Source: a virus
IMG/VR virus record: IMGVR_UViG_3300002223_000005
Span: 1 to 38,462 of that record
DNA: 38,462 nucleotides
Direction: 5' to 3' (one strand)
Shown here: piece by piece, positions 4,308-37,825 of the stretch
How the letters are laid out: each line of letters begins with the position of its first letter
How positions within the stretch are numbered: the first letter of the stretch is position 1
Notes under the pieces: generated by a model
Databases searched by the model: none
Told to the model about the DNA's origin: nothing
Seen by the model: only the letters and a program-made list of their open reading frames with translations
Program-made: the position numbers and the translations under genes

Positions 4308-4449
4308 TTCGTTTGCCTCGCTTTACTTCTTCAAAATTGGGGTGCCCTTGCATCAGTCTGTCGGCTCGCTTATGACTGACGATGATTGTGTCGCCTTCTG
4401 ACAGCACCAACGTGACCGCCTTGGCTCGTCCTTTGTATCGGTATTTCAT
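4243..4449 (-). CDS. Hypothetical small protein
   Basis: 68-aa ORF with a 4-nt overlap with the upstream gene. It overlaps the next gene by 65 nt, which lowers confidence in its 3' part. Confidence 0.35.
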   Translation of the reverse strand: MKYRYKGRAKAVTLVLSEGDTIIVSHKRADRLMQGHPNFEEVKRGKRNGSDKGEHGDTSTAQSGETEL

Positions 4450-6222: not shown

Positions 6223-7299
6223 TTATTGACCAGTTACGAACACGGAAACAACCCCGTGGTCTTTTGTGTTATAAATCAGCTTGTCGATTTCGTGCTTCAT
6301 CTCGACCGCTACCCCTGGCTGGAACTCGTAATCCTTAAGCCGGTCAACCTTAATGCTTGGGCGCTGACCCAAACCAAACCCAACTGCTTGAGCACCACAC
6401 AAAAACGCGGGCTCAACTTTCGTTGTCGCGTTGCCTGCGGTTGCGTAGTAAGTTGAGTTTGCGAGCAGGGTGCTAATCTCTGGAATTTCACGAATAATCA
6501 CGTTATCCCAAATCAGATCACCAGGCTTGAACAGCGGGTTACCTTCGCCGCGAGTGCCTGCATTTGAATGCAGCGTTTCCAGATCTTCTTGCAAATGCAG
6601 AAAACCTTGAGTACCGCAAAACAGAATGTAGGTTTCGACGCCATTAGCCAAACGAATTGGACGGATAATTGGGTCTGCTGTTCTGGCAATCTTTCGCGCC
6701 AGTCGCACAACGTCGCCGGTCAATTTATCGTTGGTCGTGTCGATATTTGCTAATGAAGCAGAGTGGTCGCTTGCTGAATAGTTGCTAGTCGCCGCGCCAT
6801 AAAGCACGCGGTCACTATTTGCCGCCACCCAAATATCAGCGGTGGTATTAATTGCCGCCGTGGTGTTATCAACAGTCACGCGAGTTCCTGTGCCGGTCAT
6901 AGAGCCAAGGCCGTACTTGATAATATCGTCGCGGGTTTTTTCCATTGCCCAATTCATCAGCGCTGCACGTGCGCCTTTCATCAGGTCGATGTTCGGCTTT
7001 TCGCGTTCTTCTGCTGACATTCTGACCGCGTTACGCCAATAAGTAGGCGTGAGTGTGTAGGCATAGTTAGCCAAAATCTCTTCGTTGCCGTCGAGAGTCG
7101 AGCTACCTGAAACGCCATTGCCGGAAAGTTTTGCAATCAACGGAATAGAAACGATCTTCTTCTCTTCTTTGATCACAATGGTGTTGTTAGAGCTTGTGCC
7201 TGTGTATGCGCTAAAGAGGTTATCCCGGACATATTCGCTGAAAAACTCAGATTCAAACCGGGTAACCACATTAGCCGAGGCTGTGGTTGTGTTAGCCAT
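6223..7299 (-). CDS. Major capsid protein (HK97-fold type)
   Basis: 358 aa, lying after the scaffold gene, with RBS aggtaggtaaaaaATG. The call rests on size, position and general resemblance to podovirus capsid proteins. Confidence 0.7.
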   Translation of the reverse strand: MANTTTASANVVTRFESEFFSEYVRDNLFSAYTGTSSNNTIVIKEEKKIVSIPLIAKLSGNGVSGSSTLDGNEEILANYAYTLTPTYWRNAVRMSAEEREKPNIDLMKGARAALMNWAMEKTRDDIIKYGLGSMTGTGTRVTVDNTTAAINTTADIWVAANSDRVLYGAATSNYSASDHSASLANIDTTNDKLTGDVVRLARKIARTADPIIRPIRLANGVETYILFCGTQGFLHLQEDLETLHSNAGTRGEGNPLFKPGDLIWDNVIIREIPEISTLLANSTYYATAGNATTKVEPAFLCGAQAVGFGLGQRPSIKVDRLKDYEFQPGVAVEMKHEIDKLIYNTKDHGVVSVFVTGQ

Positions 7300-8097: not shown

Positions 8098-9921
8098 TTA
8101 CGTATTTACTGAAACATTACCGACCGGCTGCCGTGCAATTACCTGCGTTTCGACTGCCGCTTGTATGGCTTGCTGGTTGGTCTTTTGAATGGTGGCTATT
8201 TTGAGCTGGGTATCTGCGCGCTTGTTTTCTGTGTTTGCGGCCATCTCTTCCAACTTCGCTTGCATGGACGCCATCTGAATCTGCATCTGCTGCATCTGAA
8301 TCTGTTGATTCATCTGCGCCTGCTGCGGGTCGCCTTCCATCATGTCGATGATTTCTTTCTTGTTGCGAAGCTGGCTCATTTCTAACACTACTTTAAAGGG
8401 CACAGACTGCGGTCCGTAGACTTGAGCTAGGTTAACCAGCATTTCAAATTGTTCTTGCTGAACGTTCGCAACGTCTGCGACTTCGGAAATTGAAATATCA
8501 ACATCCAGTTCGGCCACATCGTTGCGCACCTCAGCGACTTGATTAAGGCGCGGATCTTGCGCGGCAATCATTTGTTGCAACACGTAGGCGGCTTGCTCGT
8601 CACCTTGTTGGGCTTTTTCTTTGAGCACTTCGCCTGCGGTCAAAGGCTGGTTTAGCCCAACAAACTTCAGATTGTTTTCGTTGTCGGTGACCCTGACCCA
8701 GCGCTCAGAATCCCAAAACTGCCTTATTCGGTTCCAGATCTGCCGATATATGCGCTTTTTAAAGTTGCGATGCGCATCAAACAGCGGCCCGACTTCGATC
8801 AAGTCTTTGCTGTCAGCCATCATTCTTGATCTGCCGCTAGCTTCTGGAGCCACTAACGATCGTGCGGCGATAGAATCAATTTCCGCCTTGGCTTCCATCA
8901 TTAGCTGGACTTGACCAGCGGCCAGATCATTGCCCGGATCTACGTCAAACCGCATACCCGGCGTAACTTCGATTACTCCGTCGCCCTTAGTCAGCTCAAA
9001 CCGAGCTTGATTGATATCGTCCACTGCTCCGCGATCAGCAATAACCTGTCGCCGTGACAACATATACAACGACTTGCTTCGGCGATGGTTAATCTCGTCC
9101 TGAATGTCAATAAATTGACGCACCCATCCGTACTTGTTTGATTCTCTGTCCTGATAGGCATAACCGAATTCAATTGGGCAGTAAGGCTCGCCGTTTTCGT
9201 CTAGATAGGGGCTTTTCTTGCTTTCAATTAACGTCACGTCACCGGAGAAGTAGCAGACATGCCAAACGCCATCTTTTTGGTAGTAGTGCTGGCACACCTT
9301 CAGGCGCTTTCGCTTCTTGTCTATCCATAGCGGCTTATCTTCCAAGCCTTCGTCGTTGTCAATGTCAAAAGCCCTGTCTATATCCTCGTTTACTTTAAAG
9401 GTACGCTTTACCTCGTCTCGATCCATCCATATGAACAAGCCTTTATAGGTAGAGTCTGAAAAGTCACGCTTTAGGCTGTGTGGATCAAAATAGACTCGAT
9501 CAAACGGGATTCGTGTTACCGATATTTCCTCGTCGATCCATTCAACAATCGCGCCCTCGATCCCCTCAACAATCAAATCCTCGAAGCAATCTGAGGCGAC
9601 TGAATCAAAGTCCATATTTTCGGACACGTACCGAAGCGAGTCCGTTACCGCATCCGCCGCTTCTGCGTGCTGTGGCGTCCTTGGCCATGCTTTCGGGTCG
9701 GTCTTGCCTTGTCGCTCAACTCCTATTAAAAAATCAACCTTCGGCCCTATGCGATTGATTACGATGGCCGCTTGGCCGCGCTCTTGCAGCGCTGCGGCTT
9801 CTTCGTCAGTCCATTGTTTACCGTCACGATAATCACGGTCACGGCGGGCGTCTTTGCGTGCGCTATCGGTAACGTCTGCCCAGTATTCAAACTGCTTTTT
9901 ATACTCTACATCGTTCGCCAT
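8098..9921 (-). CDS. Portal protein, P22-type with a C-terminal Q-rich barrel
   Basis: N-terminal ARKDARRDRDYRDGKQWTDEE resembles P22 gp1 ARREAKNDLFFSRVSQWDD. The C-terminal QQAQMNQQIQMQQMQIQMASMQAKLEE.. coiled-coil tail resembles the P22 barrel. The gene follows the large terminase. Confidence 0.8.
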   Translation of the reverse strand: MANDVEYKKQFEYWADVTDSARKDARRDRDYRDGKQWTDEEAAALQERGQAAIVINRIGPKVDFLIGVERQGKTDPKAWPRTPQHAEAADAVTDSLRYVSENMDFDSVASDCFEDLIVEGIEGAIVEWIDEEISVTRIPFDRVYFDPHSLKRDFSDSTYKGLFIWMDRDEVKRTFKVNEDIDRAFDIDNDEGLEDKPLWIDKKRKRLKVCQHYYQKDGVWHVCYFSGDVTLIESKKSPYLDENGEPYCPIEFGYAYQDRESNKYGWVRQFIDIQDEINHRRSKSLYMLSRRQVIADRGAVDDINQARFELTKGDGVIEVTPGMRFDVDPGNDLAAGQVQLMMEAKAEIDSIAARSLVAPEASGRSRMMADSKDLIEVGPLFDAHRNFKKRIYRQIWNRIRQFWDSERWVRVTDNENNLKFVGLNQPLTAGEVLKEKAQQGDEQAAYVLQQMIAAQDPRLNQVAEVRNDVAELDVDISISEVADVANVQQEQFEMLVNLAQVYGPQSVPFKVVLEMSQLRNKKEIIDMMEGDPQQAQMNQQIQMQQMQIQMASMQAKLEEMAANTENKRADTQLKIATIQKTNQQAIQAAVETQVIARQPVGNVSVNT

Positions 9922-11366
9922 GATGTTGTGTTGCCCTTTGGTCTACCCCAGGTGTCTTTGGGTTTATCTCGTGGTGTGGTTGGCGAAATCGCCTCATGCT
10001 GCTCATCCAGTGCGAGCCCGATCAGTGCGCACACATCAACCGCGTCATCGTTTTTAGCTGCCGGAAAGCTGCATAACTGCTCAATTAATCGGTCGCCCCA
10101 TTCTGAGTAGGGGATATGAACCTTGCCCGCTGCTGCCAGCGCTTGAAACGCTCTCGCCATTGCTGCTTTATTTGAGGAACGTGCAATCCATTCCTGACGA
10201 AAATAGATTTTTCGGGCATTGCGTTGTTTGATTAAAAAAGGCTCTATTGATCGCCGAATAACCCCCGATTCACCGAACACACACAGCGGCTTATGTTCTT
10301 TAACGAGATCGAGTAGGGCATCAATCCAAATGTCTGCGGTTTCCTGCCCATACCACCAAGCCTCGATCCAGATATCCATTTCGGTATCAAGTGCAAACAC
10401 GCCTAATTCGGTGTAATCCGCACTATCCGCGTCTGATACTGCGAAATCGGTCGATATGTAGCGATTAACGTGCTGCGGCAAGTCCTGCGCGTAATGACGT
10501 TTGAACCATTCGCGCTTAAAAAATGTGCCTTCAATGGGTTTTGGCTCTTGCTGATACAGTGCCGACCAATCACGCGGCCCGATTACTGCTTTGGTTTGCT
10601 TTAAAACATCAACGGGATACCATTCCGGCCACAATGCGCGCTCGTTTTTGGTATCTTCGTCTGCTATGGCCTGTAGACTGATAATGTGCCATTGATCGCC
10701 ACCTTGTTGCTGCGCCTCGATCAAACGACCCGCTAGATCATCCTCATGCCAACGGGTTAATATGATTACAATCGCGCCACCAGGCATTAGCCGCGTATAA
10801 AGCGTGCTTGTGTACCATTTCCACACCCGATCTCTGAAAACCTCAGAATCAGCTTCATCGCGGTTTTTAAACGGGTCATCTATCAGCGCTATGTGCGCGC
10901 CCCGGCCCGTAATCGCACCGCCAACACCTGTCGAGATATAAACCCCGCCTGCGTCCGTGTGCCACCGATTAGCGCTTTTACTGTCTGCGCTTAACCGTGT
11001 CTCAAATAGCCGACCATATTCCTCGGTTTGAACAATGCTTCTCACGTCGCGGCCAAAGTCAGCGGCAAAATCATGGCCGTATGTTGTGGCTATAATTTGC
11101 TTGTTTGGATTACGCCCTAGGTACCAAGCCGGAAACCGTCTAGACCCTAACTCTGATTTCGTGTGACGTGGCGGCGCAAAGATCATCAGCCGCTTTAATT
11201 CGCCGCTTTCAACCTGCTCTAAGGCTTCGCATATTATTTTATGGTGCTGCCCTGGCTCAAACTCGGGCAAGGTGTACTGAGTGAAATCAAGTAGCTTTTT
11301 TCTTGCCTTTCTTCGTGCTAAAAGCTCCGCTGCTGCCTGCTGCGGCGATACGTGCAAGCTCGTCAT
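9906..11366 (-). CDS. Terminase large subunit
   Basis: 486 aa with a Walker-A-like FAPPRHTKSE and a Walker-B-like AHIALIDDPF, plus a C-terminal nuclease-like region (STDFAVSD..). Position fits. Confidence 0.8.
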   Translation of the reverse strand: MTSLHVSPQQAAAELLARRKARKKLLDFTQYTLPEFEPGQHHKIICEALEQVESGELKRLMIFAPPRHTKSELGSRRFPAWYLGRNPNKQIIATTYGHDFAADFGRDVRSIVQTEEYGRLFETRLSADSKSANRWHTDAGGVYISTGVGGAITGRGAHIALIDDPFKNRDEADSEVFRDRVWKWYTSTLYTRLMPGGAIVIILTRWHEDDLAGRLIEAQQQGGDQWHIISLQAIADEDTKNERALWPEWYPVDVLKQTKAVIGPRDWSALYQQEPKPIEGTFFKREWFKRHYAQDLPQHVNRYISTDFAVSDADSADYTELGVFALDTEMDIWIEAWWYGQETADIWIDALLDLVKEHKPLCVFGESGVIRRSIEPFLIKQRNARKIYFRQEWIARSSNKAAMARAFQALAAAGKVHIPYSEWGDRLIEQLCSFPAAKNDDAVDVCALIGLALDEQHEAISPTTPRDKPKDTWGRPKGNTTSWRTM

Positions 11367-19891: not shown

Positions 19892-20821
19892 TCATGCTGC
19901 CGTTTCGTTCAAATCGTCTTCAAAAAGACTTTTCTGCTTTACTGAGTGCAAACAGTGAGGACTAAACCAGATCCTTTCTTTTTCTGAATTTTCACGGCCT
20001 TTGCTTTTTGCTTGCGATCCATAACCTCCAGATGCCTTCCATTCAACCTCGTGCCAGTTTTCAGGCATTTCATGCTCCCCGGCATAACCACAAAGCGCTA
20101 TCCGATAGAGTTTGTTATCGCCGTTTTCGATAGCCCATTTTCTGACATCATGCGCAACGTCCGCGCTGTCAACCGCATAGGATTGATTGCGCTCACTCGC
20201 ATAAGGTGGATCTAAAAAAACGCCGGTTGTACCGTGTTTAATTGTCACGCTATCACCCATCACCCGCGCCCAGTCGCCACACGCCACACGCACGCCGCGT
20301 AATCGTTCCGCTAGCTGTTCAAAATATTCAGCGATCCCCCGTCCTGCATCCCCGAGGTGGGGAAGCTTTCGGTTAATCCCCCGTCCTGCATCCCCGAGGT
20401 GCGGAATTTTAGCGCTCTCAGCATGACACCACCCATCACCAATCCATGAACACAAACCCCACACCCACCAGCCAGCTATTTTTGCATCGTAATATTCAGG
20501 GTCTTTTTTTATTCGCTCCCTGAAGTCGTTTTGAGCGATCAGCCATTTATGCCTAGCTAACAAATCAGCCTCGTTAACAGGCCAATCTGCGGCCTTCGCT
20601 GTGCCCTCTGGATCGTTTGCAATCGCTCGCCAAAAATTAGCCAGGTAACAATCCGCATCGTTCACGGTTTCAGTTCTTGGCTTTGTTGGCCTGCCGAGCA
20701 GCACAGCCAGCGACCCAGCAAACGGTTCAACATAATTCGAAACATCGCCAAATTGCGCCCAAACCAAATCGGACACTCGGCGCTTGCCTCCAAACCAGGG
20801 GAATGGTGCCTTTAAAATCAT
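19892..20821 (-). CDS. dam: DNA N6-adenine methyltransferase (Dam-like, D12 class)
   Basis: N-terminal PFPWFGGKRR, motif I EPFAGSLAV and catalytic DPPY (VFLDPPYASE). Confidence 0.85.
   Translation of the reverse strand: MILKAPFPWFGGKRRVSDLVWAQFGDVSNYVEPFAGSLAVLLGRPTKPRTETVNDADCYLANFWRAIANDPEGTAKAADWPVNEADLLARHKWLIAQNDFRERIKKDPEYYDAKIAGWWVWGLCSWIGDGWCHAESAKIPHLGDAGRGINRKLPHLGDAGRGIAEYFEQLAERLRGVRVACGDWARVMGDSVTIKHGTTGVFLDPPYASERNQSYAVDSADVAHDVRKWAIENGDNKLYRIALCGYAGEHEMPENWHEVEWKASGGYGSQAKSKGRENSEKERIWFSPHCLHSVKQKSLFEDDLNETAA
20334..20401. repeat. In-frame 42-bp tandem duplication inside the methyltransferase gene
   Basis: atcccccgtcctgcatccccgaggtg occurs at 20334-20359 and again at 20376-20401. 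It encodes (I/L)PHLGDAGRGI twice. Confidence 0.85.
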
Positions 20822-24318: not shown

Positions 24319-24342
24319 GATTTAAGTTCTCACCTCCAGGTG

Positions 24343-24368
24343 AAAAAAATGCCAGCGGTTAGGCTGGC
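24343..24368 (-). terminator. Intrinsic terminator between the Cro-like gene and the rest of the early-right operon (tR1-like)
   Basis: Minus strand reads GCCAGC-ctaacc-GCTGGC A TTTTTTT. Confidence 0.7.
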
Positions 24369-24373
24369 TAGGG

Positions 24374-24583
24374 TTAGGCGGCTTTAGTTTCGTTCGGGAA
24401 AAGGATTTCGATTAAGGTCATTTCTCCATTGCTAGCCTCTTCAAGGCGTTTTGCTAAACGACTAGATACCGACCCTTTAGCAATGGCGATTTGTTGGAAG
24501 TTTCCGAAAGTAGTACCGGCAGCGGTACAGACCTCCGTTATCCGTTGCTTACTGTTTATCTTGTAAAATTCGGTAGGAGTCAT
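24374..24583 (-). CDS. Cro/YdaS-like HTH regulator
   Basis: 69 aa and the first gene of the minus-strand operon, divergent from the CI-like gene. HTH-like segment ITEVCTAAGTTFGNFQQIAIAKGSVSSRLAKRL. Confidence 0.55.
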   Translation of the reverse strand: MTPTEFYKINSKQRITEVCTAAGTTFGNFQQIAIAKGSVSSRLAKRLEEASNGEMTLIEILFPNETKAA

Positions 24584-25469: not shown

Positions 25470-26075
25470 GTGAATCAGTCAGAACTTAAGCAAATACTAG
25501 AAAAGCACCGGCTTTGGCTGAACAACGAAGAGGGCGGGGGGCGGGCGAATCTTTCCCGTGCGGATCTGAGTTATGCGAATCTGCGTTCTGCGGATCTGCG
25601 TTATGCGGATCTGAGTTCTGCGGATCTGCGTTCTGCGGATCTGAGTTATGCGGATCTGAGTTATGCGGATCTGCGTTCTGCGGATCTGCGTTATGCGGCT
25701 CTGAGTTCTGCGGATCTGCGTTCTGCGGATCTGAGTTCTGCGGATCTGAGTTATGCGAATCTGCGTTCTGCGGATCTGCGTTATGCGGATCTGAGTTCTG
25801 CGGATCTGCGTTCTGCGATAGGCAATCTACAGCAAATCAAATCCCTATTTTTGGATAGGTGGCCGGTTACTTATACCGCTGAAATACTTCAAATAGGCTG
25901 CCAAAGACACCCTGTAAACGACTGGTTCAGTTTTGATGATGATCGAATATCAAAAATGGATGCACAGGCGCTCGAATGGTGGGGCAAGTACCGCGATTTG
26001 ATCAAACAAACAATTGAGCTGTCACCTGCTCAACCAACAAATCACGAAAATAAAGAGGGGAAGGAAAGTGATTGA
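25470..26075 (+). CDS. Pentapeptide-repeat protein (18 A(D/N)Lxx units) with a ~90-aa C-terminal domain
   Basis: ANLSR ADLSY ANLRS ADLRY ADLSS ... is a canonical A(D/N)LXX repeat. GTG start with a GGGGCGGG RBS. It is the first gene downstream of PL. Confidence 0.85.
   Translation: MNQSELKQILEKHRLWLNNEEGGGRANLSRADLSYANLRSADLRYADLSSADLRSADLSYADLSYADLRSADLRYAALSSADLRSADLSSADLSYANLRSADLRYADLSSADLRSAIGNLQQIKSLFLDRWPVTYTAEILQIGCQRHPVNDWFSFDDDRISKMDAQALEWWGKYRDLIKQTIELSPAQPTNHENKEGKESD
25545..25814 (+). repeat. Tandem 15-bp DNA repeat (one diverged unit plus 17 units of GCGGATCTG[A/C]GTT[A/C]T)
   Basis: Units counted from 25560 to 25814. The 75-bp block 25560-25634 is repeated exactly at 25740-25814. 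Confidence 0.95.
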
Positions 26076-29344: not shown

Positions 29345-29638
29345 ATGGTGCACATTTTTACAGCGAAGATGCAACCGGCGACCGATTTTATAGACGACTG
29401 CGGAGCGATACCGATCCATTTTAGCTTTAAATCTGACGATTTGCTTTATTGCCAATGCTGCAACAAAGAACACACAGCTAAAGATTGCGTTGTGCAGGTT
29501 TATTACGATGACACTAGCATTTGGTGCGCGCCGGGCAAAGGCTGCAAAGACCCGCACGTCATTGATGCGAAGAAGGCCAAAGAGTTTGCAAACAGAAGTG
29601 CTGGGCAAAAAAAACGTTATGCAAAATGTAACGCCTAA
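29345..29638 (+). CDS. Hypothetical Cys-rich protein; its stop lies inside structured repeat A
   Basis: 97 aa. The TAA at 29636-29638 is embedded in GCCTAAC. Confidence 0.5.
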   Translation: MVHIFTAKMQPATDFIDDCGAIPIHFSFKSDDLLYCQCCNKEHTAKDCVVQVYYDDTSIWCAPGKGCKDPHVIDAKKAKEFANRSAGQKKRYAKCNA

Positions 29639-29679
29639 CCCTGCATTCAGCGGGCATCCGCTGGAATGCCTTGTTAGGC
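29633..29679 (+). repeat. attC-like structured repeat, copy A
   Basis: GCCTAAC cct GCATTCAGCGG gcat CCGCT[G]GAATGC ctt GTTAGGC, followed by GGTTTTTT. Confidence 0.8.
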
Positions 29680-29823
29680 GGTTTTTTACGTAGGGGCAAC
29701 CTGGTCTGTTAGAAAGTGCGCATATCGACAGATTGGTTTGTGTTGGAACGATTATGGTTGTAAACGACCGCAATCTAGCAGAGTTCGATTCTCTGCCCCT
29801 GCTCTCTATTAAAAAGGTGATTT

Positions 29824-30021
29824 ATGGCAATTGAATGGCAAAAAGGCGAGCCACCAAAAGATGACAAACGATATTTAACAAAAACAAAAACAGGGATCAT
29901 TTGCTCTTCATCATATAGAGAGGGGCGAACAGGGGAACCCGTAAAGCATTATCTCGGTTGGCGCTGTGACTGTTGCGGTAGATTTGGAACGCCTGAATAT
30001 TGGGCAAATATTGACGCCTAA
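29824..30021 (+). CDS. Hypothetical protein (weak DUF551-like N-terminus); its stop lies inside repeat B
   Basis: 65 aa. The leader AAAAGGTGATTTATGG is identical to that of ORF 30720. Confidence 0.5.
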   Translation: MAIEWQKGEPPKDDKRYLTKTKTGIICSSSYREGRTGEPVKHYLGWRCDCCGRFGTPEYWANIDA

Positions 30022-30063
30022 CCCCAAGCACAACGGCTTGTCCGTTGGTGCGCCTTGTTAGGC
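30016..30063 (+). repeat. attC-like structured repeat, copy B
   Basis: GCCTAAC cccaa GCACAACGG cttgt CCGTT[G]GTGC gcctt GTTAGGC, followed by GGTTTT. Confidence 0.8.
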
Positions 30064-30082
30064 GGTTTTAACAACTAGGAGA

Positions 30083-30307
30083 ATGAAAGAAATGAGCACA
30101 GAACATGAAGAGCCTTGTGGGTGGATTCGCGGAGAGCCGCTAGAAGTTAGGAGGAAAGTTATCTCAGGGGTCAACGCTTTTATGGTAAGGCAGTCAAATA
30201 ATCTTAGGCGTCTTGATGGTGATTTTAATCCTGGCTGCATAGCATATAAGTGGTTTTATACATTTGATGAGCTATTAGACTTTTTGCGATGGTGGATGAG
30301 CGCCTAA
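30083..30307 (+). CDS. Hypothetical protein; its stop lies inside repeat C
   Basis: 74 aa. The ATG at 30092 has better spacing to AGGAGA than the track ATG at 30083. Confidence 0.5.
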   Translation: MKEMSTEHEEPCGWIRGEPLEVRRKVISGVNAFMVRQSNNLRRLDGDFNPGCIAYKWFYTFDELLDFLRWWMSA

Positions 30308-30349
30308 CCCCGCATTCAGCGGTTTATCCGCTGCAATGCTTTGTTAGGC
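30302..30349 (+). repeat. attC-like structured repeat, copy C
   Basis: GCCTAAC ccc GCATTCAGCGG tttat CCGCTG[C]AATGC ttt GTTAGGC. Confidence 0.8.
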
Positions 30350-30373
30350 GATTGATTTAGAAGGATTAAGGCA

Positions 30374-30652
30374 ATGGAAAAATATAGATGCGACGTCAGA
30401 GGAACTGATGTTGAAATATTCAAAACAGAAAAAGGCGAATTCTTGCCGTATGACGTTGTGAATATTGAAATTGAAGAACTTAGATGCGAGGTTGCCCGTT
30501 TGCGCCAAGCGCTTAGCGATATTGCTGATCCATTTGCGGCGTGGCAACGCAACTTAAAACAAGGGGAGCAACTTAATAGCGTAATGTGTGTAGTTTTAGC
30601 AAACGAACCTGAAACGTATAAACGGCGGGCTCGTGAGGCTTTAAGCGCCTAA
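30374..30652 (+). CDS. Hypothetical protein; its stop lies inside repeat D
   Basis: 92 aa with GAAGGA RBS. Confidence 0.5.
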   Translation: MEKYRCDVRGTDVEIFKTEKGEFLPYDVVNIEIEELRCEVARLRQALSDIADPFAAWQRNLKQGEQLNSVMCVVLANEPETYKRRAREALSA

Positions 30653-30694
30653 CCCCGCATTCAGGCGCTCGTCGCCTGGAATGCTTTGTTATAC
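30647..30694 (+). repeat. attC-like structured repeat, copy D (variant right box)
   Basis: GCCTAAC ccc GCATTCAGGCG ctcgt CGCCT[G]GAATGC ttt GTTATAC. Confidence 0.75.
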
Positions 30695-30719
30695 GCGAGA
30701 TCAAGACAAAAGGTGATTT

Positions 30720-30941
30720 ATGGACTTAATATTTTTGGCAAAAAAAACACTAAAAGAACAAGGATTCGGTGGACTATACCACGATGACTGTGGATGCGAA
30801 CTAGACGATTTAATGCCTTGCTGCGCTCCGTGTATTGATTGCACTGCTGGCTATAAAAGTACGCATAGCGTTACTGGAGAATGGGTTATCTCTGGCAAAA
30901 AGGACTTACCAGACGACAGGATAGAGGTGAATCATGGATAA
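30720..30941 (+). CDS. Hypothetical Cys-rich protein
   Basis: 73 aa (DDCGCELDDLMPCCAPCIDC) with leader AAAAGGTGATTTATGG. Confidence 0.5.
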   Translation: MDLIFLAKKTLKEQGFGGLYHDDCGCELDDLMPCCAPCIDCTAGYKSTHSVTGEWVISGKKDLPDDRIEVNHG

Positions 30942-31116
30942 AGTAACAGTAAGCGCCGAGCCACTGCGAGAAATACTTCAGGCGTTGATAGGTTCGCCAC
31001 ACCATATTAGAGAACTTCAAGCAACAATGACATTACCCGGCAACTTAAACCCGATAAACCAATTGTGCGAGGAATTTAATATTCAGGCGGCTAGGCACAA
31101 CAATAAAGACGTATAA
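30934..31116 (+). CDS. Hypothetical protein; its stop lies inside repeat E
   Basis: 60 aa with an 8-nt overlap with the upstream ORF. Confidence 0.45.
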   Translation: MDKVTVSAEPLREILQALIGSPHHIRELQATMTLPGNLNPINQLCEEFNIQAARHNNKDV

Positions 31117-31150
31117 CCCCAGCATTCAGCGGGATAATGCCTTATCAGGC
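31111..31150 (+). repeat. attC-like structured repeat, copy E (shortened, variant boxes)
   Basis: GTATAAC ccca GCATT cagcgggat AATGC ctt ATCAGGC, followed by GATTTT. Confidence 0.6.
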
Positions 31151-31174
31151 GATTTTAACACCGGAGATGAAGAG

Positions 31175-31390
31175 ATGAAGGTTTTCAGAGTAGTGACTGA
31201 ACGGGACGGGGAAACGACAAAAGAACCCGGCACAATATCTACAGAGATTGTTAAGTCTGAATACTTGTACGCGGCAGAAACGATTGAGCGGGTTTGGAAA
31301 GAAACTGAATTTCTGCGTGATAGTATAGGACATGAAATTATTGCGATAAGCGAAGTAGCACCGGCTATTACTGTGCTAATGAGCGCTTAA
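31175..31390 (+). CDS. Hypothetical protein; its stop lies inside repeat F
   Basis: 71 aa with GGAG 8 nt upstream. Confidence 0.5.
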   Translation: MKVFRVVTERDGETTKEPGTISTEIVKSEYLYAAETIERVWKETEFLRDSIGHEIIAISEVAPAITVLMSA

Positions 31391-31438
31391 CCCCCAAGCT
31401 AACGGGCGCGTAGCGTCCCATCGAGCACCTTGTTAGAC
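31385..31438 (+). repeat. attC-like structured repeat, copy F (diverged in sequence, similar in structure)
   Basis: GCTTAAC cccca AGCT aac GGGCGC gta GCG[T]CCC atcg AGC acctt GTTAGAC. Confidence 0.5.
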
Positions 31439-31554
31439 GACAGTCGTTTTTCCAGGTATTAGGCGACAGTCGTCTAATCAGGTAAAGAACGACATTTGAA
31501 ATAGCGTTTTGGTTATTGCAGAAAGTGGACAGAAGTTGGAATAAGGTGATTTGA

Positions 31555-31759: not shown

Positions 31760-32089
31760 ATGAGCGAACTGTTTAAAGTGAGCGACTTGCACAAAGAAGT
31801 GCTGAATGCTTTTGAAGCGGCCGCTTATTTGCAGTTGGCTCCAAAAACAGTCAGAGCGATGACCTTAGAAGGCCGATTGCCCGGTAAGAAAGTCGGGCGC
31901 GAGTGGAGGTATCTAAAAAGTGTGCTTGAGAAGTGGTTATCTGGCGATTATTCTGAGCCTGAGCAAAATCCAGTGGGTGTTCTCAACAGAAAGGAGAACA
32001 AATCATGTCGCTCTTTAAACGTGGTGACACATACTGGGTCAATATTAGGCACAAGGGACGCCGACTACGAAAAAGCACTGGGACTGTAG
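31760..32089 (+). CDS. xis: Excisionase-family HTH protein (MerR-like HTH_17 type)
   Basis: LNAFEAAAYLQLAPKTVRAMTLEGRLPGKKVGREWRYLKSVLEKWL fits the excisionase-family DNA-binding pattern. It lies directly upstream of int and overlaps it by 85 nt. Confidence 0.6.
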   Translation: MSELFKVSDLHKEVLNAFEAAAYLQLAPKTVRAMTLEGRLPGKKVGREWRYLKSVLEKWLSGDYSEPEQNPVGVLNRKENKSCRSLNVVTHTGSILGTRDADYEKALGL

Positions 32090-33078
32090 AGCTTGAAAAG
32101 GCTCAAGAGTTCCATGACCAAGCGAAGTCGGATTTATGGAGAGTTGAAAAGTTAGGAGGCCGCCCAAGACGGACTTGGAAAGAGGCTGTCTTGCGCTGGT
32201 TGAAGGAGAACAGCCACAAAAAAAGCCTGGGATCGGACAAGCGGCGCTTGAAGCTGCTTCATGCCTGGATCGGCAATCTTTACATGGACCAGATCGACAG
32301 AGAAACCGTTGATCGCATTAAATATGATCGAGCTGGGCAGAACAAACTGAATTGCCAAGGCCAGGACACAGGCAAATGTGTGACCAATGCTGAAGTAAAC
32401 AGAATGCTGGCCTTGCTCCGAACCATATTAAAAGCCTGCTGTGATGATTGGGAGTGGATTGATAGCATACCCAAAGTGAAGTTGTTCAAGGAAGATAAAA
32501 TCAGGATTCGATGGCTGACACATGAAGATGCCAAGATTTTGTTAAATCATTTGCCTGATCATCTAAGGGCTATAGCCAGCTTTTCACTGTCCACCGGATT
32601 GCGTGAGCAAAATGTTGTGGGCCTGGAATGGTCACAAATTGATTTATCTCGTCGAGTAGCGTGGGTGCATGGTGACGAAGTAAAAAATAGCAAAGCGTTG
32701 GCGGTGCCATTAAATGAGGAAGCATTGGAAGTATTGAGAGAACAGCGATTCAAACACGATCGCTATGTTTTCACGTTCAAAGGTGACCGAATTTTAAGGG
32801 CAAATAACACAGGATGGCGCAAAGCGTTAAAGGATGCCGGAATCACCAATTTCCGTTGGCACGATTTAAGGCACACCTGGGCCAGTTGGCATATTCAAAA
32901 CGGAACAGCATTAAACACGCTGCAAGAGTTGGGTGGTTGGGAGTCTATCGAAATGGTGCGCCGTTATGCCCATTTAGCGCCCGAAAACTTAGCAAAAGCA
33001 GCAGCCGACAATTTAGCGCGTGGTCACGTTTTGGTCACAGACGAATTAGAGGCAATAAAAAAGGCGACCCACTCGTAA
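32005..33078 (+). CDS. int: Tyrosine recombinase, phage integrase
   Basis: Catalytic residues in order: GLR (R), KNSKALAVPL (K), HDLRHTWAS (HxxR), LGGWESIEMVRRYAHL (W/H..Y). It has a typical N-terminal MSLFKRGDTYW..G.R.R.STGT arm-binding domain and is adjacent to attP. Confidence 0.9.
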   Translation: MSLFKRGDTYWVNIRHKGRRLRKSTGTVELEKAQEFHDQAKSDLWRVEKLGGRPRRTWKEAVLRWLKENSHKKSLGSDKRRLKLLHAWIGNLYMDQIDRETVDRIKYDRAGQNKLNCQGQDTGKCVTNAEVNRMLALLRTILKACCDDWEWIDSIPKVKLFKEDKIRIRWLTHEDAKILLNHLPDHLRAIASFSLSTGLREQNVVGLEWSQIDLSRRVAWVHGDEVKNSKALAVPLNEEALEVLREQRFKHDRYVFTFKGDRILRANNTGWRKALKDAGITNFRWHDLRHTWASWHIQNGTALNTLQELGGWESIEMVRRYAHLAPENLAKAAADNLARGHVLVTDELEAIKKATHS

Positions 33079-33107
33079 CGTAATCGCCTGATTTATCTAG
33101 TAAAAAA

Positions 33108-33155
33108 TGGTGCCCGGTCTCGGAATCGAACCAAGGACACGGGGATTTTCAATCC
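33108..33155 (-). other. attP core: the 3' 48 nt of a tRNA-Phe(GAA) gene (anticodon stem 3' half to CCA), not a complete tRNA
   Basis: The minus strand reads GGATTGAAAATCCCCGTGTCCTTGGTTCGATTCCGAGACCGGGCACCA. This matches the E. coli tRNA-Phe 3' portion as I recall it, with one difference. Sequence 5' of it (tagta...) does not continue the tRNA. Confidence 0.8.
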
Positions 33156-33407: not shown

Positions 33408-35474
33408 TTATGCAACCAGTTTTCTATAATCACCACCTAACGGGATAATTCTCGGTATCGCCACGAATGTTCTATCAGCGTTACCTGTTTTCTTGACTGT
33501 AAAATTAAATGTACCCGAAGCTGGCATATTAAAATGCACGTAGAATCTACGCCAAGTCGTCCCAGTGTGTGTGTCACTCCACCCCCCAACAGTCACGGTA
33601 GTTGTAGCGCCTGCGGTTTCATTTTTAACATCGATAAACGCTGATATTGGTTTTCCAGCCAGATCTGGATATTGCGTAGCGTCTATTGTCATTCCGAATG
33701 ATTCAGATGTTGAAGTCGATGCGCCAGCATCTAATTCATAAACACTGATAAGTGGGCCGAGTCCATGCACTTCAGATGATGCAATAAACGTAGACGCAGC
33801 GCCTCCAACGATTGAAGTCCAGTTCGCCATTGAATCTAAAAGATTTATAGAATTTACGTTGTCTATTAAAATGTCCTGCTGCCCATCGAACCCTAACGTA
33901 GAATTTTCAATGACGAAAGGTTCAGTGTCGTCGTTGTGTGAAACAATTCGCAACCCACGATTACGCGAATACGCACTATTTGTTGTCGTGCTGCCATATG
34001 TTTTAACAAGAACTGTATTAGTGTCACCGACCAACATTGTCGGAGTATCTATATTTAGACCAATCGTGGACACGGCGTACACTAACGCATGACTTGGGCC
34101 AGCCCCTATTGAATAGAATGGAGCAGTGAATTTTACCCCCCTACACGGGTAAGCAGTGTCCATTGTAGTTTCGCTGCTAGACCCTTGAAGAATCACATCG
34201 GCATATACTGTTACTGCTGGCGTCGTAAATGTGTGTCCACTAGCTGCGTTATTATCAAAATAACAACTTGCATCAAAGGTCATTCCTTGAACTCCATACG
34301 CAAAAATAGCTGCTTTAGCGCATAGCTCCCATACGCAATTCACAAACCCTATACCGTAAGACGGCTGGAGTTTCATGCCAAACTCGGAGTGAGCCCCCCA
34401 TTTGCATCCAACAAATGTGTTTTGATTATTCTGGCCTTCGCTATTAATAAACCCTCTAACACCGGATATCCAATAACAGTTATACCACGTGTTATCCCAA
34501 CCATAACTGACGTCAGTAGATGCAACCAATGCGCCGTAAAACGATAAGTCCTTAAACGTGTTGAAATTGCAACACCCCTTCATACAGTAATCTGCTTTTG
34601 AGTTACCATTAAATATTATTGACTCAATAAAACTGTTTGCGAACTGGTTTGTTGCGCCTGTCGTCTGTGGCAATCGCACAATAGACGACATGATTGCACC
34701 AGCAATCAGTTCTGTTTTTGGTCCTTCACCCTGTAGTTTTAGTCTCAATGTCCTAGCCACTCCAATGTCAATAGGAGCATTTACTGTTATTTCTCCATTC
34801 GGTAGCGTCAGCGTGGATCGGCTTTGTATCGTGGATAGCAAGCTATTCAATATGGCGGCATTGTCTACGCTAACGCTTGTTACAGACACACCGCATTGTT
34901 CCGACCTCAAGACATTGCTTTCTCTATCCAGCATCCACACTAAACCATTAGCTGCCGTATGATTCTCGTATTCATCAGGTACCCAAGCACCATCGGCTTT
35001 AACCGCCCGCACTTCGGCCAACGTAGCAGCAGTATACTTGCCGCCACCTTTAGGTTCTAAAGTCGCCGCCCAGCCATCGTAGTAGCCTATCGTTCTGCAT
35101 GTGTCACCCTCTGCTGGCGATAGAGCTACCATTGCAGCAACTGTTGCAACGGTTTGATTCTCCAAAAATGTTGCCGCTAAAACGCCGCCGTTCAGGACGT
35201 TGAACGGATCAATCGTGTCTAAAACGCTTCCAGCCGCATTTTTAACTACAATCTTGTAAGTGATAGAGGTATCAAAATAAATGTCAGTAGGTGGCTTTCC
35301 GGCGCTGTTTAGCGTTAAACTTGTTCCGCCACTCGCCCCGGCTGAGCTGGTGTAATAGGGCGTAGGCGTACTGGTGCCAGTCAAATAGAATAAAACGGTG
35401 CCATTGACCATGAGCAAGCCGGTAGCCGGGTCGATGAACTGCTGTATAAACGGTTGGCCTTTGACGTATGCCAT
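33408..35474 (-). CDS. Tailspike / tail fibre with a predicted right-handed beta-helix (pectate-lyase-like) central domain
   Basis: 688 aa. It has a conserved-looking N-terminal head-binding segment (MAYVKGQPFIQQFIDPATGLLMVNGTVLFYLTGTSTPTPYY) and a central region with periodic N/G/C/W-rich coils (FNGNSKADYCMKGCCNFNTFKDLSFYG..NTWYNCYWISG..NTFVGCKWG). It is the last virion gene before attP, as in P22. I prefer the ATG at 35474 (GGAG upstream) over the track start. Confidence 0.6.
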   Translation of the reverse strand: MAYVKGQPFIQQFIDPATGLLMVNGTVLFYLTGTSTPTPYYTSSAGASGGTSLTLNSAGKPPTDIYFDTSITYKIVVKNAAGSVLDTIDPFNVLNGGVLAATFLENQTVATVAAMVALSPAEGDTCRTIGYYDGWAATLEPKGGGKYTAATLAEVRAVKADGAWVPDEYENHTAANGLVWMLDRESNVLRSEQCGVSVTSVSVDNAAILNSLLSTIQSRSTLTLPNGEITVNAPIDIGVARTLRLKLQGEGPKTELIAGAIMSSIVRLPQTTGATNQFANSFIESIIFNGNSKADYCMKGCCNFNTFKDLSFYGALVASTDVSYGWDNTWYNCYWISGVRGFINSEGQNNQNTFVGCKWGAHSEFGMKLQPSYGIGFVNCVWELCAKAAIFAYGVQGMTFDASCYFDNNAASGHTFTTPAVTVYADVILQGSSSETTMDTAYPCRGVKFTAPFYSIGAGPSHALVYAVSTIGLNIDTPTMLVGDTNTVLVKTYGSTTTNSAYSRNRGLRIVSHNDDTEPFVIENSTLGFDGQQDILIDNVNSINLLDSMANWTSIVGGAASTFIASSEVHGLGPLISVYELDAGASTSTSESFGMTIDATQYPDLAGKPISAFIDVKNETAGATTTVTVGGWSDTHTGTTWRRFYVHFNMPASGTFNFTVKKTGNADRTFVAIPRIIPLGGDYRKLVA

Positions 35475-35493
35475 ATTAAAAACTCCGGGCAAT

Positions 35494-35526: not shown

Positions 35527-35790
35527 ATGGAAATAATTATTGCGGTCGCCGTTATAGCTAACGCGCTGTTACTGGCCGTGATCGTTTACATCTTGAGCGT
35601 GTTTGTGACGCGCAATAATGAAGATGATTCGAATTTTTTATTTCTTGAGAAGGTTAAGCGGATTACTCGCAAGCTAATCATTTACGGGTATTATTTGTTA
35701 ATGGCCTTTATTGCTTATACGGTACTAATGATGATCCTGTGCGGGAATCTGGTTCTGATTGACGCTTTAGGAGGCGTTCCAAAGCCTTAA
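35527..35790 (+). CDS. Possible two-pass membrane protein in moron position (opposite strand)
   Basis: ATG at 35527 after AGGGTGA. Two hydrophobic helices (IIIAVAVIANALLLAVIVYILSVFV, LIIYGYYLLMAFIAYTVLMMILCGNLVLI). It occupies an AT-rich ~190-nt gap with no minus-strand ORF, but its last 83 nt overlap the convergent 705-aa gene. Confidence 0.35.
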   Translation: MEIIIAVAVIANALLLAVIVYILSVFVTRNNEDDSNFLFLEKVKRITRKLIIYGYYLLMAFIAYTVLMMILCGNLVLIDALGGVPKP

Positions 35791-37825
35791 ACGCTTGCTG
35801 GTCGTTAATGTTGCGCTGCTCTTCAATGGTCTTCCCTGCCTTTTTCAAAACTGCACCAAATACAATCTCTTTAGGGCCTTTCACGCCATGCTGTCCATTT
35901 ATATCACGCATGGCGTTTTTTATCGCTGACTCCTGAACTCCTTGCAAGCTGCGTTCTGCTGTTTCGCCAAATCGTTTGTTGAGGATGTTATCTAGAGTGA
36001 CTAACTTTTTAACATCAACGTTTGATTTCCATCCTAGCTGCCGCGCAACGTCATCTAACTTAATTGTGGCTTTATCCAATACTGGCCCTGATCGGTAATT
36101 TGACATAAGCTTGCGCATTTCCTTACCAACTACGACATCAGGATCAGCTTCGTCTATTGTTTTTCCCATGGCTTTTCTAAAGTCATTCATGGCATCAATT
36201 GATATGCTTAATTTGTCATTGATCTTTGCGTAATTAGGATCGACTGCGCGAATAGCATCGTTAAGTGATGTTCTGACGGATCTGATTAACTTGTCTGCGG
36301 CATCGGTTAAACCGCGCTGCGGCATTTTTTCGTAATTGATCAACTGATCAAGTTGCTGCTTTAGGTCGTGGGCGCGTTCTGCGTTCGGTGTTGCACGGTA
36401 ACTGAGCAAGTCGATCACATCATTAATAGCTTTTTGCGCTGTCGGATCTTTTGCAATGCGTGAGCCTGCAAAATCATCTGGCGTTAATCTTCTGGCAAGT
36501 TCGCCGCGCTGATAAGGAACTTTTAACTTGTCCAGTTCACCAAAAAAGTTATTCTGTATTTCGGCAACGTCTAAACGCTGGTTTTTGAACTTTTGACTTT
36601 TTGCCAGATTGGAAAGCTTGGTTGTGGCTAATTCCGTTTTAGCATTGATAAATTCATAGCCCTCTAATACGTTGCGCCCAATTACGTCTGATGGCCTAAA
36701 GTCAAGAGCTTTGCTCTTAGTCGCGTATATTTGCTGTTTCATTTTCGCCATATTCATGGCTTCGCGCTTGGTGTCTCCATTCATTAATTTAACAGTCTGA
36801 ATGTCGCCAAGCTCGAACTGTTGGCGCATTGCCTCTTTTGCCAAAGCATCGTCAACGGGTCGGCCTGCATCATCCAGGCGATAAAGCGCAAGATTGCCTT
36901 CACCATCGCCGCGCTTGATTTTTTCCGCCATAAGCCTAGTGACCGCAACTTCAGGCTTGACGTTAATGGGCAGGTTTTCAACATCGTCCATAATGTCTTG
37001 GAAGGTAAGCCCTTTATTTTTTAACGCAACTTCAAGCGCTTTGGTAGGTTCACCATCAGGGGTGATCAACAGCTTTTGTTTTGGTGCCAGTGCTTTAAGT
37101 GTGCCCTTGCCAAGATTGGTTAGGGCGGTCGATGCCGCGCCCGCCCCAGCTATCCCGGTCACGGCCCCGGCGATCTCGGGCAACAATGCCGCGCCTGTGG
37201 CGGCAAGTGGGCTTCCAGTTCTTTCTAGTACTGTATCGCCTAGTGTGGCAAATGCGCCCCCCTTCCGTGAAGTTTGGTAAGTCTGCTTGGCGCTTTCAAG
37301 CGCTTGTTCGTCTGTAACCTGCGGGTTTTCACTTAGGGTTAATATGTAATCAGCTACGGCACCCATGCCCGACAATGGCACGTTTGCAAAGTCCACGCCC
37401 ATAGCGATAAGATCGCCCAGTTTCTTGACTCCCTTAGCGCCAAAGGCTGTTTCTGGTGCGTAAGTGGGTAGCTTTTGCTGTCGCTGCTTTATTGTTTCCG
37501 CTGCCGCGTCCAAATCTCCGCCAGAAGTTACCGCTTTAGCAACACCCTCAACGCCCGATATTAACTGATTTGACAAACCGCCCAGCACCGCTTGAACTGG
37601 TTCGATAACCATATCTGACGGATAGCCAAGAGGGAGCGCTTTTGGTTCTGGCTGCGCTTCTGGTTGCACTACTTGCGTAGGGTCGTTAGTGGCAGACTTA
37701 ACCGTGATAATGCCGCGCTTAACTGCTTCGTCAAACCGGGCGCGTTTATCAGGGTCAAGCTTGTCCTGTAAACCCCTATTAGCGATTTCCTGAAACCGTG
37801 CGATATTTTCTTGAGGTGTGGCCAT
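35708..37825 (-). CDS. Large internal virion / ejection protein (putative)
   Basis: 705 aa lying between the wrapped 411-aa gene and the tailspike, the position of the P22 gp20/gp16-type ejection proteins. I recognise no enzymatic motif. Confidence 0.5.
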   Translation of the reverse strand: MATPQENIARFQEIANRGLQDKLDPDKRARFDEAVKRGIITVKSATNDPTQVVQPEAQPEPKALPLGYPSDMVIEPVQAVLGGLSNQLISGVEGVAKAVTSGGDLDAAAETIKQRQQKLPTYAPETAFGAKGVKKLGDLIAMGVDFANVPLSGMGAVADYILTLSENPQVTDEQALESAKQTYQTSRKGGAFATLGDTVLERTGSPLAATGAALLPEIAGAVTGIAGAGAASTALTNLGKGTLKALAPKQKLLITPDGEPTKALEVALKNKGLTFQDIMDDVENLPINVKPEVAVTRLMAEKIKRGDGEGNLALYRLDDAGRPVDDALAKEAMRQQFELGDIQTVKLMNGDTKREAMNMAKMKQQIYATKSKALDFRPSDVIGRNVLEGYEFINAKTELATTKLSNLAKSQKFKNQRLDVAEIQNNFFGELDKLKVPYQRGELARRLTPDDFAGSRIAKDPTAQKAINDVIDLLSYRATPNAERAHDLKQQLDQLINYEKMPQRGLTDAADKLIRSVRTSLNDAIRAVDPNYAKINDKLSISIDAMNDFRKAMGKTIDEADPDVVVGKEMRKLMSNYRSGPVLDKATIKLDDVARQLGWKSNVDVKKLVTLDNILNKRFGETAERSLQGVQESAIKNAMRDINGQHGVKGPKEIVFGAVLKKAGKTIEEQRNINDQQAFKALERLLKRQSEPDSRTGSSLVPYKQ

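Follow-up and report, generated by a model that had tools for sequence, protein, structure and literature searches.

The attC sites of integrons are imperfect inverted repeats bounded by the boxes RYYYAAC and GTTRRRY, in which the AAC/GTT triplets are conserved, and their bottom strand is organised as 5′-RYYYAAC (R′) … L′ … L″ with extrahelical bases … GTTRRRY (R″)-3′ (PMC5027507). Clusters of attC sites lacking an integron integrase (CALINs) have been described in phages, and the integrase IntI1 recombined five of the six phage attC sites tested, among them both sites of Tetrasphaera phage TJE1 (Qi et al. 2023, PMC9892861). Here we analysed the 38,462 nucleotides of the IMG/VR viral record IMGVR_UViG_3300002223_000005 (referred to as the window), in which six short hairpins, sites A to F, follow small open reading frames (ORFs) between positions 29633 and 31438. 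The initial annotation of this DNA had proposed an integron-cassette-like array carried by a phage, and had taken such a feature to be undescribed. The latter is not the case, since phage attC arrays were already published by Qi et al. The proposal itself was borne out: a covariance model of canonical attC sites matches one strand, the architecture is that of TJE1, the signature of the boxes was replicated in new loci, and a related phage carries different cassettes. We propose that the intergenic elements are miniature attC sites of the integron type and that the small ORFs between them are gene cassettes, and assign to this reading a probability of about 0.62. It is based on the fold and its covariation, the one-strand matches of the attC models, the boundary signature in the boxes and the cassette polymorphism between relatives. 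The best-supported description of the array is a CALIN, since no integron integrase is encoded, with cassettes once and perhaps still exchanged by an integron integrase acting in trans on the folded + strand.

As in the window, several attC sites lie between small ORFs in TJE1, and there is no intI gene. The TJE1 sites, of 50 to 60 nt, also have the layout of the window sites, i.e. a 7-bp box, a 3-nt spacer, 5 bp, a bulged G and 6 bp, as seen in the 50-nt site GTATAAC-ATT-GAGTT/AAGGCG-loop-CGCCTT-G-AACTC-GTT-GTTGGAT. Complementarity with the box of the next site holds there too (GTTATAC then GTATAAC), and the same models match. However, the bottom strand is opposite to the genes in TJE1, whereas it is the coding strand in the window. 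Furthermore, the window sites, unlike those of TJE1, are members of a homogeneous sequence family that was found in at least 22 viral or metagenomic contigs, are located in an early operon between recombination genes and xis-int, and usually have the stop codon built into the box. The sedentary integrons of bacterial chromosomes, such as the Vibrio cholerae repeat (VCR) arrays, resemble the window in that highly similar attC sites flank unrelated small ORFs without known function, with boundaries inside the R boxes. In contrast to these, the window has no IntI, attI or cassette promoter (Pc), its sites measure about 48 nt instead of about 120 nt, its genes are mirrored, and the carrier is a 38-kb temperate phage. 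The usual length of attC sites is about 55 to 140 nt; the sites of the window have 47 to 48 nt, and the 50-nt TJE1 site validated with IntI1 has the same layout.

The boxes were found exactly where they had been placed, with the same sequences, and in all six sites the TAA stop codon of the upstream ORF lies within the left box. The left box is GCCTAAC at 29633, 30016, 30302 and 30647, GTATAAC at 31111 and GCTTAAC at 31385, the ORFs ending at 29638, 30021, 30307, 30652, 31116 and 31390. The right box is GTTAGGC at 29673, 30057 and 30343, GTTATAC at 30688, ATCAGGC at 31144 and GTTAGAC at 31432. All sites are on the + strand. Site A (29633 to 29679, 47 nt) begins with GCCTAA-C, which holds the stop codon of a 97-aa ORF, and ends with GTTAGGC followed by six T residues. 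Sites B (30016 to 30063), C (30302 to 30349) and D (30647 to 30694) have 48 nt each. Site B has a 5×5 spacer and the inner stem GCACAACGG/CCGTT-G-GTGC, site C a bulged C, and site D the right box GTTATAC. These four sites fold into an outer stem of 8 bp and an inner stem of 11 bp, separated by an internal loop of 3×3 (A, C and D) or 5×5 nucleotides (B). The inner stem is closed by a loop of 4 to 5 nt and has a single bulged base in its 3′ arm. The bulged base, G, G, C and G in A to D, had been recognised as the single unpaired base of the 3′ arm; it is located 8 nt from GTTRRRY, and in the short sites a T occupies the loop/stem junction, 7 nt 5′ of it. When the two strands were folded separately as single-stranded DNA (ssDNA), as had been advised, sites A to D folded similarly on either strand and also as RNA (z-scores −2.8 to −7.0 overall, −2.8 to −6.6 for RNA).

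The description of six attC-like hairpins therefore stands for A to D, which are near-perfect bulged hairpins, and not for E and F, which are decayed copies. Site E (31111 to 31150) has kept its left box GTATAAC, while its right box reads ATCAGGC and its 3′ arm is partly deleted; no stable fold was obtained. Site F (31385 to 31438, GCTTAAC … GTTAGAC) is weak, with a poorly paired centre. The ssDNA fold of its own strand is no better than that of shuffled sequences, and its right box pairs better with the downstream sequence GTCTAAT.

The compensatory changes reported between the stems are real. In an alignment of nine sequences, double changes occur in nine of the 11 pairs of the inner stem. 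With 23 sequences they occur in ten of 11, 87.7% of the cells are paired, and none of 500 shuffles reached the observed score. The cores TAAC and GTTA are invariant or nearly so in the 23 aligned sites. The motif CGCCTAACCC, allowing at most one mismatch, occurs seven times against 1.35 expected, a number reached by none of 100 shuffles. The seventh exact copy of CGCCTAACCC lies at 24330 to 24380 on the − strand, after an opposite-strand ORF, and is followed by a plain terminator hairpin (GCCAGC … GCTGGC) with seven T residues. It has no attC-like centre and is matched by neither of the two covariance models described below; it is either a relic or a chance occurrence.

Two covariance models were used, R1, built from nine copies of the phage-type elements, and R2, built from canonical sites only, i.e. 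five sites of L167, two of TJE1 and four of L314, another attC-like array. L167 is a complete integron, the IntI of which scores 488 bits on TIGR02249. R1 detects all six attC sites of L167 and both attC sites of TJE1. The search for attC sites on both strands, which had been suggested, was carried out with R2 as a surrogate attC model and matched sites A, B, C, D and F on the + strand with 32 to 46 bits (E values of 1e-9 to 4e-6). The − strand scored about 20 bits lower, and the next-best match anywhere in the window had 10.7 bits. Site A scored 67.1 bits with R1 and 45.9 bits with R2 (25.4 on the − strand). The values for R1 and R2 were 68.1 and 37.2 bits for B, 73.3 and 43.8 for C, 68.0 and 35.1 for D, and 21.6 and 32.3 for F. 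Site E was matched by neither model. In the whole window, R1 and R2 match only sites of the array. In the R2 alignment the bulged base and the T of the loop/stem junction fall on the canonical extrahelical G and T, and their spacing of 7 equals that of G16 and T23 in attCaadA7 (PMC5027507). Rfam gave no attC or other relevant match in the array region, at gathering thresholds and at E≤1. The window sites have the RYYYAAC/GTTRRRY boxes, the unpaired central spacer, the extrahelical base on the L″ arm and the match to the surrogate model that are expected of attC sites, and five model-positive sites within 1.8 kb, with no IntI in 38 kb, correspond to a CALIN.

Bulged, strand-specific hairpins located after stop codons could also be ends or relics of another single-strand element, such as the palindrome-associated transposable elements of the IS200/IS605 type, or the repetitive extragenic palindromes (REP) and bacterial interspersed mosaic elements (BIME) that go with a REP-associated tyrosine transposase (RAYT). 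This origin is hardly credible. Among the scanned ORFs of the window there was neither an HUH/Y1 transposase nor a second recombinase, the boxes correspond to the RYYYAAC/GTTRRRY cores of integrons, and the canonical attC models match. It was rejected for the missing transposase and for the integron cores.

Related elements were collected by pattern scans of IMG/VR and metagenomes, followed by R1. The first set comprised L159, L108, L183, L220 and L324, and two further scans added 21 loci (L272 and L336 to L355). The 67 family sites of 22 loci have a median length of 49 nt (range 40 to 95). Positions 4 to 7 of the left box are TAAC (NNNTAAC) in 63 of the 67, and in 47 of the 67 its TAA serves as the in-frame stop codon of an ORF with 40 aa or more; in 15 more, an ORF stops at most 30 nt upstream. 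The extrahelical base is mostly G, and the T at the loop/stem junction is present in the short sites and in most others. The elements, which are 78 to 93% identical, are the only DNA similarity found between the window and L159, L183, L220 and L108; one flanking gene is conserved, at the protein level only. Scans of IMG/VR with exact 19-mers and 14-mers returned mostly chance matches. A scan of 185,579 species genomes with the integrase found relatives that were at best about 50% identical, none of them with the elements. Relatives recovered through the 90-aa upstream ORF (L311 to L313) have no elements and are too divergent to inform.

The strongest regularity concerns the boxes of neighbouring sites. 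In the 22 viral or metagenomic contigs, a right box and the left box that follows it are exact reverse complements at 34 of 46 junctions, whereas the two boxes of one and the same site match in only 15 of 68. The boxes of the discovery set were curated by hand. Perfect pairing with the next site was found there at 15 of 20 junctions, seven of them non-consensus, and perfect pairing of own boxes in six of 25 sites; permutation within the arrays gave a p value of about 2e-5. The 21 new loci of the replication set were fetched after the discovery set and their boxes taken automatically from the model hits. Here, 19 of 26 next-site pairs are perfect, 17 of them non-consensus, as compared to nine of 43 own pairs. 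In the window, the right box of D (GTTATAC) has two mismatches to its own left box and exactly complements that of E (GTATAAC), two positions off the consensus. L108 has perfect pairs at all five junctions, and three of these involve non-consensus boxes. A run of three perfect junctions occurs in L159, where two pairs are non-consensus (GTTATGT/ACATAAC and GTTAGCT/AGCTAAC). As read from the sequences, this matching is the classical boundary signature of gene cassettes: the integron crossover takes place inside the R box, so that the variable part of GTTRRRY goes with the adjacent RYYYAAC. The boxes belong to the cassettes and not to the hairpins. The pattern follows directly if the units pass through a stage, such as a circular cassette, in which one end is joined to and paired with the other.

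These data bear on the possibility, raised initially for RNase III sites and leaky terminators, that the hairpins punctuate the early transcript in one of these ways or as stabilisers of mRNA 3′ ends, and are conserved for that role. The hairpins are indeed transcribed with the operon, directly after stop codons, and their helices, about 22 bp in total and interrupted by an internal loop, are reminiscent of RNase III substrates. The hairpins between the early genes of T7 likewise have about two helical turns, an internal loop and shared sequence, and directly follow early genes. In addition, the T-runs noted initially were confirmed, T6 after A and T4 after B and E, with none after the other sites, and attC sites are themselves thought to contain weak terminators (PMC9892861). 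However, a GC-rich hairpin directly followed by a T-run was not found beyond site A with its T6, terminator-like sites are not enriched (4 against 3.4 expected), and most family members have no T-run. Hairpins conserved for a role in RNA should keep their own boxes complementary, yet these are perfect in 15 of 68 sites as compared to 34 of 46 next-site pairs; neither RNase III processing nor leaky termination can explain why right boxes find their match in the following site and not in the same one. Nor does RNA stability account for the sequence-specific TAAC/GTTA cores and for a T and a G at attC spacing, and the T7 hairpins, which are defined by RNA cleavage, have neither RYYYAAC/GTTRRRY cores nor box matching between neighbours. 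We consider it improbable that the elements are conserved for RNA punctuation.

Evidence for exchange of the units came from L324. This divergent relative shares with the window the 71-aa ORF upstream of the array (75% nucleotide identity), 40 nt after the SSB-like gene (95%) and a large downstream gene, while its five small ORFs are all unrelated to the cassette ORFs of the window. At the start of its array a half-site follows the conserved ORF, and at the end only a left box is present. Positions 30644 to 30691 of the window, at site D, are identical over 48 of 48 nucleotides to positions 2154 to 2201 of L324, and the identity stops after the GTTA of the right box. This points to a recent exchange, as the identity of the shared genes is only about 75%. 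The polymorphism of units that had been anticipated among relatives was thus found in part, as L324 shares the flanks and no cassette ORFs, whereas all seven other contigs fetched for the same phage have an identical array where they overlap it.

The identical centre of D and its L324 twin, with different flanks, also fits homologous crossovers on either side of the hairpin. The elements could then be linkers comparable to the promoter early stem-loops (PeSLs) of T4-type phages, i.e. homology patches of about 50 to 70 nt (stop codon, hairpin, Shine-Dalgarno (SD) sequence) at which phage recombination genes swap neighbours between co-infecting phages without a site-specific recombinase. PeSLs act in this way (PMC2839356, PMC4122927), and they resemble the window in that conserved stem-loops bracket small variable early genes and bound the insertions and replacements between related phages. 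The region just upstream in the window has genes for an exonuclease and a Mu Gam-like protein as well as an SSB-like ORF, and the conservation continues past the right box into the SD region. However, homologous exchange creates no complementarity between the boxes upstream and downstream of an ORF, and the 7-bp boxes, with ORF-specific variants that involve the last sense codon, match across 200 to 500 nt at 34 of 46 junctions. PeSLs, for which homologous recombination was proposed, combine an early promoter with a terminator-like stem-loop; the window has integron cores and cassette-type complementarity, and no promoter component (three promoter-like sites against 6.4 expected, none at the elements). 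There is only a slim chance that the elements are linkers of this kind. RNase III processing, leaky termination and PeSL-like linkage may be secondary roles; none of them accounts for the box pattern.

The sites have the orientation indicated by the initial annotation, in which the coding strand is the equivalent of the bottom strand. This holds for the window and for all family loci examined, where the coding strand matches the attC bottom strand. In the controls L167 (IntI+) and TJE1 the bottom strand is opposite to the genes, as in canonical integrons, and L314 agrees in part. The gene strand was called from the ORFs that end at the site, because calls from the longest ORF are unreliable in GC-rich control arrays. 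Counts of G-T versus A-C mismatches gave no indication of which strand folds. The canonical arrangement, an ORF on the top strand with the attC site 3′ and expression from Pc, was found neither in the window nor in the family loci. The mirror orientation is also observed in IMG/VR arrays with aadA-like sites of classical size (L136, L168 and one site of L220), and where attC sites of classical size go with real methyltransferase genes (L136, L163 and L168). In L168, full-length DNA methyltransferase-like genes with DPPY motifs (6485 to 7231, − strand; 9873 to 10547 and 10676 to 11209, + strand) end exactly at the attC left box, on the bottom-strand side. The orientation is therefore not confined to tiny ORFs or short sites. 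The array of short sites in L220 contains a classical aadA-like attC site at 962 to 1017 (+ strand) in bottom-strand orientation (GTATAACGCCTGAATTAACCGG...CGCTTGAACGAATTGTTAGGC), so that the short and classical types mix in one array. In the GC-rich viral contigs L163, L168, L142, L157 and L093, attC sites of classical size are directly followed by a conserved motif, CTGGCAGCCACCA(C/T)GCCCAGGGC, which is another repeat attached to the right box. Qi et al. describe phage arrays as typical or divergent in direction (PMC9892861). The mirror arrangement, with the bottom strand coding and the stop codon at the crossover point, was not found described in the literature examined and looks new, as do the homogeneous family of about 48-nt sites, its position in an early operon and its breadth across viral contigs.

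No integron integrase was found in the 38-kb window, nor an IntI-type motif in the other family loci examined. The sole tyrosine recombinase of the window (32005 to 33078, + strand; Pfam Phage_integrase) is an ordinary phage integrase, as had been stated, and its TIGR02249 score of 32.8 bits is far below the cut-off of 265. Directly after int, positions 33108 to 33155 (− strand) carry what we take to be the 3′ half of a tRNA-Phe-like sequence, one mismatch from the E. coli tRNA-Phe when compared by eye, and this is the probable attP core; no complete tRNA was found in the window. The phage integrase was rejected as the recombinase of the array, since it is not IntI-like and adjoins the tRNA-Phe attP. 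Moreover, the arrays of L159 and L324 have no adjacent integrase gene.

Several observations weigh against the reading as attC sites that delimit gene cassettes. Three of them, the missing IntI, the decay of E and F and the invariance of the array, speak against current activity. The recombinase would presumably be a host IntI acting in trans, and the large terminase subunit TerL, at most 51% identical to that of any cultured phage, gives no pointer to a host. No attI was identified, and the combination of intI, adjacent attI and Pc that makes a complete integron is absent. The canonical logic of expression from Pc does not apply to mirrored cassettes. R2 is a surrogate model, and its input sites were themselves found by the box pattern or by R1. 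Several junctions do not fit, for example those from E to F, with three mismatches, and from e1 to e2 of L159, with two. In the D/L324 pair both the upstream ORF and the right box differ, for which a single fixed crossover point is insufficient; the pair needs two exchange points or the repeated attachment of one attC type to different ORFs. Finally, E and F are decayed, and no ongoing rearrangement was seen in the same phage: 11 contigs on record carry it, and all seven other contigs fetched, from several samples, are at least 99.8% identical to the window and have an identical array where they overlap it.

The last two points, together with the lack of an encoded IntI, would be accounted for by a fossil CALIN, i.e. 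an array built by past integron-type recombination in an ancestor or on another replicon and now fixed, the hairpins serving at most as RNA punctuation. Site E has lost half of its stem, and F folds poorly with boxes that mismatch its neighbours. On the other hand, A to D are near-perfect, with boxes, spacer and bulge intact, the family is widespread with different cassettes in each of the 22 loci, and two phages with only about 75% identity in their shared genes have one site in common that is 100% identical. We regard a wholly fossil array as unlikely, although it deserves more weight than the explanations by RNA punctuation or homologous linkers, and retain the reading as attC sites with gene cassettes.

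According to this reading, the limits of the cassettes can be proposed from a crossover between AA and C on the bottom strand; all the following features are on the + strand. The backbone ORF of 71 aa conserved with L324 (29116 to 29331), directly after which the half-site lies in L324, marks the upstream edge of the variable region. The 97-aa Cys-rich ORF (29345 to 29638) ends in the left box of A. As there is no recognisable site upstream, it is the first unit or else belongs to the backbone. The putative cassette 1 (29639 to 30021) would comprise the centre of A, a 140-nt tRNA-like spacer and a 65-aa ORF (29824 to 30021), ending in GCCTAA. Cassette 2 (30022 to 30307) would contain the centre of B and a 74-aa ORF (30083 to 30307), and cassette 3 (30308 to 30652) the centre of C and a 92-aa ORF (30374 to 30652). 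Cassette 4 (30653 to 31116) would carry the centre of D with ORFs of 73 and 60 aa, and its ends, GTTATAC and GTATAA, are non-consensus and perfectly complementary. Cassette 5 (31117 to 31390), with the decayed centre of E and a 71-aa ORF (31175 to 31390), is probably fixed in place because its ends no longer match. The array terminus (31439 to 31483) has two direct repeats of TTAGRCGACAGTCG, followed by the left-box-like GTCTAA-T that complements the right box of F, and forms a long hairpin when folded; it may be an ORF-less remnant cassette with the junction to the backbone. Homologues of the 60-aa ORF of cassette 4 were found only in ordinary, tightly packed phage operons without hairpins. 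No single cassette was therefore caught in two arrays, so that shared cassettes gave no indication of the ORF with which a hairpin centre travels.

The leader AAAAGGTGATTTATGG is common to 29812 and 30708, as reported initially. The ORF-free stretch of 140 nt after site A (29686 to 29815, + strand) has a cloverleaf-like fold (z-score −2.5) with an acceptor-like stem, GTAGGGGCA/TGCCCCTGC, and a T-arm-like hairpin, GCAGAGTTCGATTCTCTGC; neither ARAGORN nor Rfam made a call on it. The sequence TATCAGGCGATT, which is the aberrant right box of site E (31143 to 31154, + strand), recurs in the excisionase gene (31938 to 31949, + strand) and, inverted, just downstream of int (33082 to 33093, − strand). 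With at most two mismatches it has seven matches against 2.9 expected, and could be a binding motif of Int or Xis, or a chance repeat.

The window is a temperate tailed phage of 38 kb. Its − strand carries the terminase, portal and DnaB-like helicase genes. The early operon on the + strand consists of the exonuclease, the Mu Gam-like protein, the SSB-like ORF, small ORFs, the array, a 65-aa ORF, the excisionase and the integrase, so that the array lies towards its distal end, after the recombination genes and before xis-int. No close cultured phage was found, and a megablast of the array region against 50,697 phage records gave no match. The only difference between the window and the other contigs of this phage lies in the gene of a pentapeptide-repeat protein in the early region (25470 to 26075, + strand), where the alignment breaks between 25637 and 25739, which suggests variation in repeat number. 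A D12-class N6-adenine DNA methyltransferase is encoded outside the array (19892 to 20821, − strand). Two large ORFs of 694 and 705 aa (33408 to 35492 and 35708 to 37825, − strand) have no match in Pfam, NCBIfam or PHROG. Homologues of the 694-aa ORF adjoin the arrays of L159 (5764 to 7461) and L324 (about 4200 to 4460), and it is therefore a phage gene and not host flank.

As to the enzyme, the strand used and current activity, we infer the following. The + strand would become single-stranded during replication or exonuclease processing, and the hairpins would fold. A host integron integrase acting in trans would cut the left box between A and C, directly after the stop codon, and recombination of two sites would excise or insert a circle of the form C-hairpin-GTTRRRY-SD-ORF-RYYYAA. 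The array would thus serve as a shuffling platform for accessory early genes, partly decayed at E and F in this phage. Because the sites are mirrored, the cassettes would have the proper orientation in phage operons and the reverse one behind a bacterial Pc promoter.

A broader idea, which we put forward tentatively and at somewhat less than even odds, is that temperate phages keep a cassette pool of their own with attC sites that are mirror images of the bacterial ones. In such a pool the recombinogenic bottom strand would be the coding strand, the crossover would occur right after the stop codon of the R′ box, and an SD sequence would often follow the R″ box. Its cassettes would be expressed in a phage early operon, and would be inserted backwards and remain silent in a bacterial integron, the reverse applying to bacterial cassettes in phages. 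Host integron integrases and prophage induction are both SOS-inducible. The shuffling of accessory early genes between unrelated phages by host integron integrases could therefore coincide with prophage induction.

The orientation provides a clean experimental handle, namely recombination of the + versus the − strand, and integron-finding pipelines applied to phage data should state the strand that carries the genes. Very short, homogeneous sites attached to dozens of unrelated ORFs represent a compact system for studying the origin of cassettes and attC sites. The mirror orientation would set the phage-side cassette pool apart from the bacterial one by strand logic. If the sites are active, the hypervariable region at the end of the early operon would be served by integron machinery in addition to illegitimate and homologous recombination, and the shuffling of phage genes would be linked to the integron integrase of the host.

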